In this document: in pieces, positions 3,001-9,000 of the stretch | How positions within the stretch are numbered: position 1 is the stretch's first letter | Layout of the letters: each line of letters starts with the position of its first letter | Virus record (IMG/VR): IMGVR_UViG_2728369105_000001 | Location: 1 to 47,303 of that record | From: a virus | Taxonomy: Duplodnaviria > Heunggongvirae > Uroviricota > Caudoviricetes | Length of the DNA stretch: 47,303 nt | Strand: one strand, 5' to 3' | Made by a program: the position numbers

Positions 3001-6000
3001 CTCAACACCTGCTACTGCAAAATGGATATCAGATGTCACAGACGGACTTGCTGATTGTTGTTTTTACGCTGGGCATTTTAGCCTTTGGCTATTCCATATG
3101 GTTCATTTCGAACAGAATACTCTGCTCAATATTTCATAGACTTACAAAGAATGTATGAATTGGGATGGTATAGACCCAAATTCATGGTCCTTGCTCCTCG
3201 ACGTCGGAAGGTACTTACAGATCATCTTCGCTCTTAACCTATCACATCGGCACCTACTCCATGATGTAAAAGCTCAGAGCAGAAATATCTGGAAGCTTTA
3301 GGCATCTTATTGGAAGATAGACGAGCGCAAAGACGCACACAGCAATGATGTTATGTAGTATTTTCCCCTTGAGTGTGCCTGCTCAAGGGGATTTTTTATC
3401 TGTGAGTGCTTCAATATCACTTCACTCCCTAATTGCACACAGGCCTACACGCAGGCGCCGCATCCAATTCGCACTCCATGTTTACGCAATTTAACAATCT
3501 AACATAAAGATTTATGACGTCATTTTGAAATCATTAAGTTATAAAAATATTTAAAGAACATTAACCTCTTTCCGGAACAAAACATGATGAAAACAAAAGC
3601 TGACCTGCTTCTGTTATTACTTGCCCCACTGTTACAACAGGCGCATGCAACTGACTGCGAACCTAACGGGTATGGGGGAACCTTTTGCATCAATGATGAC
3701 GGAACGACATCTGATAGCATACCAAACGAAGTTAATGGGCAGGATGTCTACTCAAGCAACGGTACATCAAAGATCATTTCACCTGATGAATCTGGAATGA
3801 ACAATGTCCTGAATGATAATGACGATGATGAAAACTCCGACCTCAATGGCTCATTGGACCCGGACTCTTTATCATCTCAGAATAATACAAACCAAGGCTC
3901 GACGGGTCACGATGAAGCCAATAACCCCCTAATGGGCCGTGACTGGAACTCGCCAGCTAATATCAATTCGGATGGTTCAGCAACATCCAGTATCAATCCT
4001 GATGAGTAAGTGGCAGATTTTTAAAGGCATCCACATCGTAATTTTGCGGAATTTTTTTCACATCCACTCAGCTCAGCTCATGTCCGCAACCTGCTACGGG
4101 GTGGACCCGCCATCCAGCATCGCATGGACCATACTCGACAACTTCTGGAATCGTAACACAGTGCAAGCCACCAACGCGAACCACTGATCTCTCATGCCGC
4201 TAACCCTGTGCGAATTCTCTCAACGATAATCTCTTGCTCCATCCCAGTCGACGCGCTCAAGATATGGAAGTAAAAAATATTGCTAACTAGCTTTCTGGGG
4301 TATATAAATTACTTGTTATCATTATTTCCCACATGAGCATTAAAAAATTATCTTTGGTGTATCCTCTCAATCTAACTAAAGGTTAACGAAATGAAGCATG
4401 GAATGATTTTAACAAGAAAAATGACGTTAGAAAATGGTTCTATATCAGTAAATGGAGGCTTTGACCCATCAGCTCTAAGATTAGCCGTTTTATATCTTGA
4501 CGGAATATGTGTACCACAATCACAACTTGTTGGATTTGGGTTAACCGAAGAGATGAAAACATTAAAATCGGAAGGTTATCTATCTGAAAAATACTATCCT
4601 ATAAGACAGTCCCAAGCAGCAGGCTCAGATATATTGGTAACAGCATATGGAGACTGTTTCGAAGAGTTAAATAAAACAAATAACGAAGTTTGGATGGTTC
4701 ATAACTCCCTCAATGCTCACTTAACTAAAATAAAGACAACTGATGATGGCGGAGAATGCATTCAATTACTAAATGCACTTCCTATGCCAGGTGAAGATTT
4801 CCCTCTTGGTGACCTTCTCGAATTCAAGAGCAAAAGGAAAGACAACTTAAAAGAGCTGTTATTATCAATAGAGGAGTTTCGCCTTGAAATAATAAACTCT
4901 GAAAATCAAGACATGGAAATAAAGAAATCAATAATAAAAATTGAAAAGAACATAATAGACCTACATAAATTAATCAAAGAAACACAGCCAGGGTGGTATT
5001 TATCGAGTTTTTCATTGGATATTTCATCAAATGATTTGCTTGATGTTTTTACAAAAATTTATGGTGAGGCGAAAGAACTTGGAATGGAAGAACTGAATGC
5101 ATTGCTGACATCTGCTGGTTTAAGTGTAGCAACTTGCTTTAATATAAAGGGAGGGTATAGATTTAAAGCAGGCAAACCCAATTCTCCATATCTTTATGCT
5201 GCTGAAGTGAAACAGAAATTCAGAATAAACTAAACCTCATGCCAAGGCATTACCCCTCAATGCCTTGGCATTAAAAACACCCAAACTTTAATAAGTTAAA
5301 ATTCTAATCAGACATTCTCTGCACCGGAAAACACAGAAAGTGTTTTCAGATACGCATATCCCTGGTTAGTAATGCTTTCAGAAGAATCGGGATCGGGTGT
5401 GAATGTGTAGTTCTTCATCGCGCCCGGTGCCATCTCGTCATCGTCCGTGTCACTGAAAAATACGCTGAGGTTGATTGACGCAGCATTACCTCCGAAGCTC
5501 TGTATTTTCGCGAACCGGAATACAGTATCGCCGTTCGACGTCAGAATATGAAACTCGCCTTTTAAAGCCATCGTTATGCCTCCAGTCCAAACCGCCATTG
5601 CGGGTTAGTCAATGTCACCCCTGAACCGCCTGTTATCGTGAACAGGACCTGCTCCTGAAATTTCAAATCAACCAGTATTCCGTGCGTGCCCGGTACGTTC
5701 GTCTGAAATACGGGCATACCGTTTTTAGATACTGAACAGGAACCACCGCTGGAAGGGATAGTCAGCGAGACAAAATACCGTCCCGGGCGTCGGTACGGAT
5801 ACTGGAATGTCGAGCCATTTCCCACCACCGTGCCATTAAGCGGGTGCGCAGCCTCTCTCAGGGAAAACGAGGACTGCGAGCCATCGTCGGTGTACCGGAT
5901 GCGGCAGAAGTTGGTTTTTCTCGTCTTCACTGTCCCCAGTTGCTCTTTGTTAGCCAGCCGGATGACGTAGTTGGTTGTGTTCCCCTCAAGCTTACAGCGC

Positions 6001-9000
6001 TCACCGATATTCAGCGTACCGGCGGCAGGGGTTTTCACTGACACAAGGGCCAGTTTCTCTTCCGCCTCAGCATCGTAGCCTGAGTGGTTATCGTTATTTT
6101 CCGTGTTGAGATAAATCTCCCACCCGGCGCCGATCGTTTCATCCAGTTCAATCGTGGGCTCAGCAGGCCAGCCACGAGCGGGCGTATTAAGCTGCTGGAG
6201 AAACCCGTCGTTGATATACAGCATCACCGGATCGCCAACCACGTTGACTCGCTGTCCACGGTATTTCAGCAGGTTGAGGTTATTCGTGCCGAGGAAGAAC
6301 TTACTGATATACCAGGCTGTTGCATGCGCGAACGTAATACGGGAGTTAAAGCCAGCGCGCATGAACCGCCCGGAGTTCTGCGCGTGAACCCCCGAAATAA
6401 ACAGGTTCGAGTTACAGACCTCAAGAGCGTATAAATCCGGGTTAGACTGCGCATAAGTTGGCGCGCCACAAATGGAGATGTGCTTCCCAACCGTGACGTT
6501 CGGGCAGTCCCAGAAGCACAGGTGACCAATCCCTCCGGCCCCTGTCAGAATATCGCTCAGGGATAATGTGCCGCACTCGCTGAAAATCAGACCGCCTGAA
6601 GTTTCCGTGTGCGGTACATAATCCTCAAATGTCATTTTGAGGTCATAGCACCTGGATATCAGGCCGTAGGTACGGTTATTCTGCGACCAGATTGAATTCC
6701 AGTGACCCAGACCAGCGCCGGTATTCACCAGATAAAAGTCGCGCCCGCATGATTTGATGTTGAACACCACATCGCCCACGTTCTGAATAGAGGGCAGCAC
6801 CTGCACCAGATCAGGCCAGTACGCAGTGACGGCGGAGTAATCAGATTTGCCGGTACTGTAAAGAACAGTCCCGGGATAATTCCCCGCATGCATATCGAAG
6901 TCAGGCGCGTTAACCATCGCCTCCAGACGGAGAATATAGTTATCGTTGACCATCGCAGCAATTTCATCATCCGTGAAATTATCGACGTTGAAATCTATCC
7001 CGGTATTGTCGACGTGGATCCTGAAGTATGGATTGTTGGCCTGGACAACGAAGAAGCCAGCCCCCATGTCCAGAGCACACAGCATGTCGATACCAAAGCG
7101 ATTACCGGCACCGCCCGGAGGGAGTTTCCAGGCCATATATTCCGGCCAGTTGCCGCAGCGAATATGATGGCGTTCGGCGATATAGACCACCCCGACATCC
7201 AGACCTTTAATAATGGACTGAGGGTAGCCAGACTCTGATATTGAAGCGGCGGCCTGAAGGCAGTTTTTAAACGCAAAATCCTGTGGTGCAGAAGTCTGTT
7301 TCACGCTTTTTGCCCGCGCCCAGGCCATGCGAATTTCATTGCCCTCGAAGCGACGTTTCCACAGACGCCCCAGCGGATCACGGATATGTACACAGTCGTC
7401 GTCGGGGATGGTCATCACCGCACCGCCGGGTACCTGATCGAAAATCCCCTGAGCACCATCGAGGCGGGTTTCTGCCCCGCAACACATGATCGAATTGCCG
7501 GAACCGGTGAAGTTTCGTATCTGAGAGTAGGTCGCCTGACCTATCAAACCGAACCCTTCGCTTGAACCCAGGTTTTGGCGAAGAGCAGCATCACCGACAG
7601 AAACGAAATGAGCAGAGTCTGTAGCAGTCCAGGTTTCGTCCGTTTTACCCGAAGCAGTGAACGGGATATCCGTCGCTGCCGTGAGTTTGTAGAGTTCGTT
7701 GTTATAACGAATGAGCTGGTTATACTCGGTGATGGTCAGGGGATTCCCTTCCGGGATAGTCCCCACCGTGTAATCGCCAATGATGTCATAGCCTGATGAA
7801 GCGATGAACGTATTAAATCGCGTATCCTGATCGGCCAGCTGAGAAGTAAACCGACTCTCCTGACTGGCCATCTGGCTGAGAAACGATGTCTCCATTCCAA
7901 AAAATGATGGCCGGACTTTCCCCAGGCGGTCAGTCCATATCAAGGCCGTCAGGCTGTTCAGTGCAAAATCGAGGTTCTCGGCGTTATCAAATAAATCTTT
8001 TACAGCCGCAGAGCCCAGCGGGTTGCCGGTTTTATATGTGCTCATAGTCGCCCTATAACAAAAAAACCGCCGAAGCGGGTTGTTGAGAGTTATTTCTGTT
8101 TTATGCAATGTCGCCGGGATAACTGGCGTTGTCGTAGTCGTAGAAGGACGCGCGGTACTCTTTGGCGGTAACCTGACACGTCCCGTCTGATTGAGGGGCA
8201 ATCTCCTCAACAATGGCGTCATAGACATGACGCGTTGAGCCGCAGAACACCAGTCGGACTGGCTCAATGGCTGGTGAAGTCTGGTCAATCTTCAATGGGT
8301 CATCAAAATCACTCAGATGGGGAACGGACAACTGATAATCCCCCACCCTGCTCGCCACCATCAGACCGGATGCAGAGCCATCCTGATAGCGGATCAGCGC
8401 ACGGGGGTTTTCGAAAGACCAGTCCAGCGGCTCCGTAACGGTGAAGGTTGTCACGCCACCAGCCGTTGTCATCGCCTCCACCAGACTGGAAATCGTGTTG
8501 TTCCCCGGAATATCATCCGTGAGCACGATGCGATCGCCTGTGTTGTAGCACAGCGCGTCCAGCTCGGTGGTGGTCTGGAACGTCACCCGCTGCTGCAGGT
8601 ATTTCATCAGGCGGCGCATGCCGATCTGGTAGGCGTGATCCTGAGAAAGTACCCCATCGAGTTTGTAGTTCTCGATTTTCACCGGTGTGGGATTATCGGG
8701 TGTCCGACATTTAACAGTCTCCTCCGCCCAGGTGACGCCGTTGATGTACGTCACGTCGACACCATCAAAATCATCGTCGGACGGCACGGTAAATCCGCTC
8801 TGCAGCTCCTCCACCATCTCATGCGGCGTTATGATCCCCGTCCAGGGCTTAATCCCCTCGCGGTTGACCGTCGCAAGACCATCGCTTAACAGGAAGCGGG
8901 ATTTCCCGGCACTGGCTATCATCTGCAACATTTCCAGCGCCGAGATACTGTCGCCGGTGGCGAAATCGAAATTTTCGCCCCGTGGCGTCCAGTACGCGGA

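Follow-up and report, generated by a model that had tools for sequence, protein, structure and literature searches.

Small accessory genes coupled to a receptor-binding gene are already a known kind of phage gene. There is experimental precedent in Alteromonas phages V22 and A5, in which the product of the small downstream gene (gp27 in V22, gp9 in A5) acts as a trans chaperone or “transient cap” (PMC10579305, PMC7289586). This chaperone moves with its fiber among siphoviruses, myoviruses and podoviruses, and its proposed site is the distal end of the trimer (PMC10579305). Other systems that invite comparison are the Tfa/gpU/Caudo_TAP proteins and the Peptidase_S74 domain. Here, a gene pair of similar layout is described in a 47,303-nucleotide (nt) DNA sequence from a tailed phage (Caudoviricetes; IMG/VR record IMGVR_UViG_2728369105_000001, positions 1–47,303), referred to throughout as the window. 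A tailspike gene is followed, two bases past its stop codon, by an open reading frame (ORF) encoding an 87-amino acid (aa) protein of the family PHROG 18037. On balance, gene organization and comparative sequence evidence favor a role for the small protein as a translationally coupled, stoichiometric assembly factor for the tailspike or as a transient cap. No earlier description seems to exist of the systematic pairing of this family, across phyla, with beta-helix tailspikes.

How are the two genes arranged? The tailspike gene occupies positions 5574–8045 on the minus strand, with an ATG at 8045 and a TAA stop at 5576–5574, and encodes an 823-aa receptor-binding protein (MSTYKTGNPLG...QWRFGLEA). 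The small ORF occupies 5308–5571 on the same strand, with an ATG at 5571 and a stop at 5310–5308 (MALKGEFHILT...SGAENV). An earlier note on this DNA had described an 823-aa distal gene with an 87-aa ORF 2 nt after its stop; both are present exactly so, and the description needs correction only for strand, since both genes are on the minus strand. The two bases between stop and start are CG, at 5573–5572 (TAA-CG-ATG). The junction (5569–5585, minus strand; CTGGAGGCATAACGATG) also contains a Shine-Dalgarno sequence, GGAGG at 5583–5579, which lies 7 nt 5' of the small ORF's ATG and within the terminal Leu-Glu-Ala codons of the tailspike gene. A longer, 96-aa reading of the small ORF from an ATG at 5598 is mechanically possible; the 87-aa start is preferred because it fits the family-wide N-terminus (“MAL/MGL”) and the RefSeq calls in E. 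coli.

This layout is kept in all 17 homologous loci that were compared, at 38%–94% protein identity, with CTGGAG supplying the ribosome-binding site. The gap is 1–2 nt in 16 of the 17, while the remaining locus has an ATG that overlaps the stop. The pair thus has the features expected of coupled genes: a start a few nucleotides past the upstream stop, a ribosome-binding site inside the upstream gene, and conservation of both in homologues. The proposal of translational coupling made in the earlier note stands on these grounds, and the small ORF is probably coupled to the tailspike gene, with re-initiation itself inferred from the sequence. A programmed-frameshift fusion of the two ORFs is unlikely, given that the frame offset differs among homologues (a 2-nt gap, a 1-nt gap or an overlap). 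A promoter scan found no promoter-like site within the window's tailspike 3' end preceding the small ORF. On its other side, the small ORF is the terminal gene of the minus-strand tail block, and a gene for a DUF6236 protein (4391–5233, plus strand) converges on it across a 74-nt spacer. The spacer contains a 14-bp hairpin at 5239–5271, in a region with a folding energy of −34.1 kcal/mol (z = −5.9 against shuffles), and the ORF is, as had been claimed, the last gene of the tail operon ahead of a convergent hairpin. This hairpin is likely the transcript end of the tail operon; a simple consensus terminator scan did not call it (poor T-tract).

The small ORF encodes a real protein, far beyond a chance ORF. 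Among nine close homologues, differences at codon positions 1, 2 and 3 number 280, 247 and 942, and this concentration at third positions indicates purifying selection on the protein. RefSeq annotation of two E. coli prophages includes this 87-codon ORF, and 18 protein clusters at 60%–95% identity are found in Klebsiella and E. coli. The protein is acidic, as the earlier note had stated, with 11 Asp and Glu residues against 5 Lys and Arg and an isoelectric point (pI) of 4.3; the family median is 4.9. It has no Cys and no hydrophobic segment (maximum 19-residue hydropathy 0.69), and sequence analysis found no signal peptide, lipobox or membrane segment. An AlphaFold2 model built from a small alignment (predicted local distance difference test [pLDDT] score 90) places strands at residues 3–11, 14–29, 32–40 and 50–57 and a helix at 67–75. 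The predicted fold is a four-stranded antiparallel sheet with a C-terminal helix bearing the family motif (Q70, Y72, L75, K76, F81, A84).

What is the family? The small protein matches PHROG 18037, annotated as function unknown, with E = 4.6e-5 (residues 6–84 against profile positions 6–88 of 97), and 41 of 45 aligned homologues also match it (best E = 7e-28). Membership of PHROG 18037 names the protein without explaining its function. No Pfam or NCBIfam family matches the small protein at E ≤ 0.1, PF02413 (Caudo_TAP) and related models included, and PADLOC gives no match. Likewise, a Pfam scan of the 45 family members yielded only three isolated chance-level matches, with no Caudo_TAP or related fiber-assembly model at E ≤ 0.01. 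The family is nevertheless large. An exhaustive profile search of 1.8 billion representatives returned 48 matches, about 40 of them proteins of 83–118 aa, and a search of a 5.8-billion-sequence collection returned at least 1,953 matching clusters. The best 120 of these 1,953 clusters are 82–165 aa long and have no Pfam domain; their source names, where given, are “hypothetical” or “uncharacterised”. The hallmarks of the family are a length of 80–130 aa, a MAL-like N-terminal start, and a conserved C-terminal helix and tail with the pattern NFIxQGYxYLKTLPEFxxAxD, all of which are seen in the window protein (C-terminal motif region ...SITNQGYAYLKTLSVFSGAENV). Positions conserved at 90% or more in the family alignment are M1, G28, F57, Q70, Y72, L75, K76, F81 and A84, while the N-terminal strands and the beta3–beta4 loop differ among members in both sequence and length. 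The structural neighbors in BFVD, a library of viral models, consist solely of uncharacterised small phage proteins, among them gp151 of phage KWBSE43-6, proteins from Klebsiella podophages and one from a crAss-like phage. No solved structural relative was found, and there is none among solved tail proteins.

One feature of the family sets the Klebsiella clade apart. A C-terminal cysteine (“...A-x-D-C” and then the stop) is present in 28 of 56 unique PHROG 18037 members (viral contigs L012–L084), whereas small proteins of the Klebsiella clade end in V, A, I or S and have no Cys anywhere. A terminal Cys is unusual for a small cytoplasmic protein, and it could serve metal binding in an oligomer or a covalent link.

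The large gene had been described as a distal tail fiber or tailspike gene. A distal receptor-binding protein it is, but not a fiber: it is a modular tailspike with a modeled beta-helix body, of the depolymerase type and a putative depolymerase. Three parts can be told apart. First, an N-terminal adaptor module (aa 1 to ~170; 7536–8045, minus strand) is helical and exchangeable, with pLDDT of 46–69, and matches to tail-fiber PHROGs are confined to it. Second, the body (aa ~171–700; 5946–7535, minus strand) has the right-handed parallel beta-helix, or pectin-lyase, fold and is the presumed glycan-binding or depolymerase part. Third, a C-terminal beta-rich domain (aa 701–823; 5577–5945, minus strand; AlphaFold2 strands within 703–820) ends in W-R-F-G-L-E-A, and an ending of the form W-R-(F/Y)-x-L-E-x is found in 17 of 17 tailspike homologues compared. 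Homologues are of two kinds. In many prophage proteins of Klebsiella and Raoultella, only the first ~20% is shared with the window protein, at 95%–99% identity, and unrelated bodies follow (beta-helix, SASA esterase and others). About 20 other proteins match residues ~130–823 at 40%–66% identity behind different N-termini, such as the T7 tail-fiber N-domain and Tail_spike_N. Because homologues share either the N-terminus or the body, the protein is read as a modular depolymerase-type tailspike rather than a fiber. It resembles the Klebsiella capsule depolymerase tailspikes (K64-1 S2-4, KP32gp38, K1 lyase) and CBA120 TSP2 in its beta-helix body, C-terminal beta domain and modular N-terminal anchor. 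It differs from them in having no significant Pfam match, and its identity to solved structures is only 7%–12%, with no catalytic residues assignable.

Five phages of three genome types that carry a homologous body (H10, H11, H13, H14 and H17) were isolated on K. quasipneumoniae ATCC 700603, and another carrier (L094) is named K53PH164C2. This suggests that the body targets one capsule type, as a lead only, with the K-type not confirmed from the literature; literature searches gave nothing usable on KL53 or ATCC 700603 specificity or on the named phages.

Does the small ORF travel with the tailspike? The earlier note had treated a lack of conservation with the fiber gene as the result that would count against its claim, and the opposite was found. 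A tblastn search against phage genomes located homologues of the small ORF, at 37%–45% identity, in siphophages (Webervirus), myophages (Taipeivirus) and podophages of ~45 kb. Every homologue examined lies 1–2 nt past a tailspike gene with a body homologous to that in the window. Indeed, the small ORF trails a homologous tailspike body in lambda-like, T1-like, Ackermannviridae, SU10-like, T7-like, P2-like and Mu-like phages. The tailspike/small-protein pairs include gp150/gp151 in KWBSE43-6 (Taipeivirus), gp23/gp22 in Klebsiella phage P1 and LOCUS24/LOCUS23 in K53PH164C2 (both Webervirus), CDS0055/CDS0056 in Bullseye and KX1_10/KX1_9 in KX1. Podophage contigs have pairs of 907/85 aa (SU10-like) and 936/85 aa (T7-like), a P2-like prophage has a pair of 774/98 aa, and a Mu/P2-like prophage has a pair of 751/87 aa.

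The small ORF also co-varies with particular parts of the tailspike. Across 17 pairs, the Pearson correlation of small-ORF identity is 0.93 with identity of the body, 0.91 with that of the C-terminal domain and 0.56 with that of the N-terminal adaptor. Thus, the check that the earlier note had put forward, co-variation with the fiber C-terminus among related phages, came out strongly positive. Individual loci follow the same pattern. In one (L087), the adaptor is 98% identical to that in the window, yet the body and the small ORF are both only 68% identical. Four others (L002, L005, L007 and L008) have foreign adaptors, at 26%–45% identity, together with bodies at 94%–97% and small ORFs at 91%–92%. 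In E. coli MB07152, DNA similarity spans from ~40 nt inside the small ORF's 3' end to tailspike residue ~150, which indicates that the exchanged unit is the body plus the small ORF. The small ORF varies together with the spike body; it does not follow the prophage backbone.

These data bear on one alternative, namely a moron or lysogenic-conversion gene whose product acts in superinfection exclusion or modifies the receptor and whose position at the tail operon's end is incidental. Its place, last before the prophage cargo region, suits such a gene, and related prophages carry conversion-type genes there, for example the Acyl_transf_3 gene in the prophage L097. However, strictly lytic phages (Webervirus, Taipeivirus, T7-like and SU10-like) also carry the gene, which is in all cases coupled to the stop codon of the tailspike, follows the spike body rather than the backbone, and has no promoter-like site in the window's tailspike 3' end. 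The product has no signal peptide, lipobox or membrane segment, and the PADLOC defense library gives no match. This explanation, which the earlier note had offered as its receptor-modifying or exclusion option, is scarcely credible. An exclusion protein of the Cor/Llp/SieA type in particular was considered and rejected on the low hydropathy maximum, the lack of Cys, the lytic carriers and the lack of a PADLOC match.

The association with receptor-binding genes extends well beyond the Klebsiella clade. When viral contigs were scanned, 80 loci encoding 67 distinct family members were located. Of these 67 unique loci, 62 have an ORF on the same strand that ends just upstream of the family member, with a median gap of 12 nt and 51 gaps below 30 nt. 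The upstream ORF is at least 410 aa long in 53 of these 62, and several of those below this length are truncated at the end of a contig. Among 54 upstream proteins, Pfam matches were to PF12708 (pectate-lyase-like; 26), Beta_helix (8), NosD (4) and the T7 tail-fiber N-domain (2), and tail spike and tail fiber PHROGs predominate. Members were also found in bacterial genomes (Paenibacillus, Clostridium, Sporomusa, Jeotgalibacillus, Vibrio and Sphingobacterium, and metagenome-assembled genomes of Bacteroidota and Actinomycetota) by a scan with the distant-member alignment A5; a scan with alignment A1 found nothing. In the bacterial loci, the member lies 1–34 nt past a receptor-binding gene, overlapping its end in one locus, and the partners are receptor-binding proteins of beta-helix, T7-tail, tail-collar and lectin types. 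No fusion of the small protein to a tailspike was found among the 48 exhaustive-search matches, the 67 viral loci or the best 120 of the 1,953 clusters; the long exhaustive-search matches are repeat proteins in which a short internal stretch matched several times. In every locus examined, the small protein is a separate polypeptide.

The range of partners is relevant to a second alternative, in which the small protein is an inhibitor or regulator of the depolymerase that masks the glycan-binding or active site, in the cell or just after lysis, and so prevents unproductive binding to debris or capsule. This idea overlaps with that of a transient cap but assigns no folding role. The low pI of the window protein and of the family, the presumed stoichiometric synthesis and the specificity of the family for enzymatic beta-helix receptor-binding proteins agree with it, as does the capping role proposed for the Alteromonas chaperones (PMC10579305). 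However, the partners include proteins other than beta-helix enzymes (a ConA-like lectin and a tail-collar fiber), and the conserved helix gives no obvious sign of mimicking a polysaccharide. Moreover, the spike folds in the cytoplasm, and in Wzy-dependent capsule synthesis the capsule polymer is absent from that compartment. An inhibitor is accordingly quite improbable.

How might the small protein work as an assembly factor or cap? The locus would be a two-gene receptor-binding cassette consisting of the tailspike and a cognate 87-aa accessory protein. Ribosomes that finish the tailspike would re-initiate on the small ORF, giving roughly equimolar product. The small, cytoplasmic, acidic protein would then bind the body or the C-terminal part of the nascent tailspike, and the bound protein would aid trimer folding and assembly, transiently cap the distal end, or both. 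It would thereby do in trans what the C-terminal chaperone domains of other spikes do in cis. The common working part may be the conserved C-terminal helix and tail, possibly for self-association and perhaps as a trimer that matches the spike, with the variable N-terminal strands and beta3–beta4 loop conferring specificity for the cognate spike. A chaperone function is proposed because of gene position, coupling and co-inheritance only.

Several points weigh against this proposal. First, adjacent genes co-recombine through linkage alone, so co-variation by itself is no proof of physical interaction. Second, conservation in the small protein is highest in the C-terminal helix, which is common across partners whose spike C-termini are not conserved; among the distant partners, these C-termini have no conserved sequence and hence no common docking sequence. 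The conserved surface may serve something besides the spike. Third, one partner protein carries a Peptidase_S74 intramolecular chaperone of its own, which means that PHROG 18037 is not simply a replacement for the S74 domain. Fourth, the small protein has no similarity to any known chaperone fold, and no paper describing the PHROG 18037 small gene was found in the literature.

A third alternative is that the small protein is a permanent component of the virion at the distal or C-terminal end of the spike, as a stabilizer, a secondary adhesin or a docking piece. Coupling, which implies 1:1 stoichiometry, and co-inheritance with the tailspike body and C-terminus would serve a virion component equally, and some fiber chaperones do stay attached (TfaMu, T2 gp38; cited in PMC10579305). 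The pattern of conservation is less accommodating: there is no sign of the rapid diversification that an adhesin would be expected to show, with small proteins of the Klebsiella clade 90%–95% identical where the bodies are 94%–99% identical, and the conserved part is the same across hosts of different phyla. In addition, no virion proteome evidence was found, and solved tail proteins include no structural relative. A permanent place in the virion is therefore rather unlikely, and an assembly factor or transient cap is the preferred reading.

A broader proposal is more tentative. PHROG 18037 may represent an unrecognized class of tailspike maturation factors or caps that act in trans and span phyla, as a free-standing functional counterpart of the C-terminal intramolecular chaperone. 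Possibly, its members are needed for, or strongly help, the folding of beta-helix depolymerases, and would have to move with the spike body in swaps and recombinant expression.

Placement of a small ORF directly 3' of the tailspike gene seems to be a general arrangement. For example, the Escherichia phage KWBSE43-6 (L003, 1100–12819) has four tailspike genes, each with its own small ORF within 1–3 nt. These ORFs encode 78–99 aa (one spike has two), and an annotated terminator comes next in every case. Among the products, gp151 is the sole PHROG 18037 member; the rest look helical and show no sequence relationship. Similarly, a small ORF follows the spike gene in three of four Klebsiella prophages that have the same backbone as the window and other beta-helix bodies. 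L097, a Klebsiella prophage of the same backbone, has a SASA/SGNH esterase spike with no small downstream ORF, and its Acyl_transf_3 gene converges on the spike gene; this prophage pairs a deacetylating spike with a likely acetylating lysogenic-conversion enzyme. Most of the small ORFs after other tailspikes, in the same-backbone prophages and in KWBSE43-6, have no sequence relation to PHROG 18037. There is a weak C-terminal resemblance in L096 (hhalign E = 0.002) and L120 (hmmsearch E = 0.016), and these two and the second small ORF of L091 have the same size and a degenerate version of the PHROG 18037 C-terminal pattern. This is a hint, drawn from sequence, of a wider fold-level superfamily that would cover sequence-unrelated small ORFs after tailspikes. 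In the Mu/P2-like prophage L119 (804–5020), a classical collar-type fiber with its Caudo_TAP gene adjoins a tailspike with its PHROG 18037 member. This coexistence suggests that each receptor-binding protein has its own partner, with two accessory systems side by side for two receptor-binding proteins in one phage.

The window holds a whole prophage, located between a yfdC-like formate/nitrite transporter gene and a tRNA-Arg(CCT) gene (window 1–933, 42400–43857 and 44022–45308), with its integrase at 42400–43752 (minus strand). A second integrase gene just past tRNA-Arg(CCT) suggests a tandem island. E. coli MB07152 has a related prophage, also beside yfdC. Between the prophage end and the tail operon lie two cargo genes on the plus strand, neither of which encodes a protein that matches PADLOC. 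One (3584–4009) encodes a 141-aa protein with a signal-peptide-like N-terminus, an Asn/Asp/Ser-rich body and no family match, and the other is the DUF6236 gene already mentioned (phrog_23128). In MB07152, this cargo slot holds different genes. Near the integrase end, the window has plus-strand genes for a DndB-family (DNA-sulfur-modification-associated) protein (39197–40285) and a dATP/dGTP pyrophosphohydrolase (40533–41201). The gene before the tailspike encodes a 1,022-aa TipJ-family protein (8101–11169). A short hairpin, CCGC-UUCG-GCGG followed by U7 (8060–8078, minus strand), lies between this gene and the tailspike start; it was not called by the consensus terminator scan and may be a weak terminator or attenuator. 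Five Klebsiella phages (Kp4882-1 and others) that otherwise have nothing in common with the cassette match the 72 nt around it (8029–8100) at 98.6% identity, and from its sequence this segment looks like a conserved recombination joint.

What are the practical implications? Phage depolymerase tailspikes are the object of large-scale mining and production, whether as agents against capsules or as modules swapped in to engineer host range, and many of them fail in expression or after swapping. A conserved partner gene lies two bases past the tailspike stop, with partners of this kind in hundreds of phages, and it would meet a need for folding or capping if the proposed role is correct. In that case, pipelines that clone only the large gene would systematically omit half of the functional unit, with consequences for depolymerase production and receptor-binding-protein engineering. 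The family is large (~2,000 clusters) and spans Gram-negative and Gram-positive hosts, with no Pfam entry, solved structure or published function. If the small protein is instead dispensable, it is a well-documented but ordinary conserved hypothetical gene.

How does the small protein compare with the known systems? Like lambda Tfa, P2 G and Mu U of the Tfa/gpU/Caudo_TAP group, its gene lies directly after a receptor-binding gene, co-varies with the C-terminus of the encoded protein and is exchanged together with it. It differs from this group in having no sequence similarity, in being half the size and in serving tailspikes rather than fibers, and the earlier judgment that it is not Tfa-like was borne out. 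With the Peptidase_S74 domain of endosialidases and T5 pb1, it would share dedication to one spike, 1:1 amounts and association with the C-terminal end, and it would also resemble that domain in being absent from the mature functional part. There is no S74 domain at the C-terminus of the window spike and no S74-like fold in the small protein. Homology to A5 gp9 was rejected, as hhalign of the family profile gave a probability of 0.1% over 1 aligned column. The Alteromonas proteins are ~240 aa long, with a helical IMC-like body and a beta-hairpin “tentacle”, and serve knobbed fibers, whereas the window protein has 87 aa in a predicted four-stranded sheet with one helix, and PHROG 18037 partners are mostly beta-helix tailspikes. 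The small protein is thus neither Tfa-like nor IMC-like. Its likeness to V22 gp27 and A5 gp9, the nearest analogues that have been studied by experiment, is one of organization: in both systems, a small gene lies directly 3' of a receptor-binding gene, and the pair moves between morphotypes as a module.

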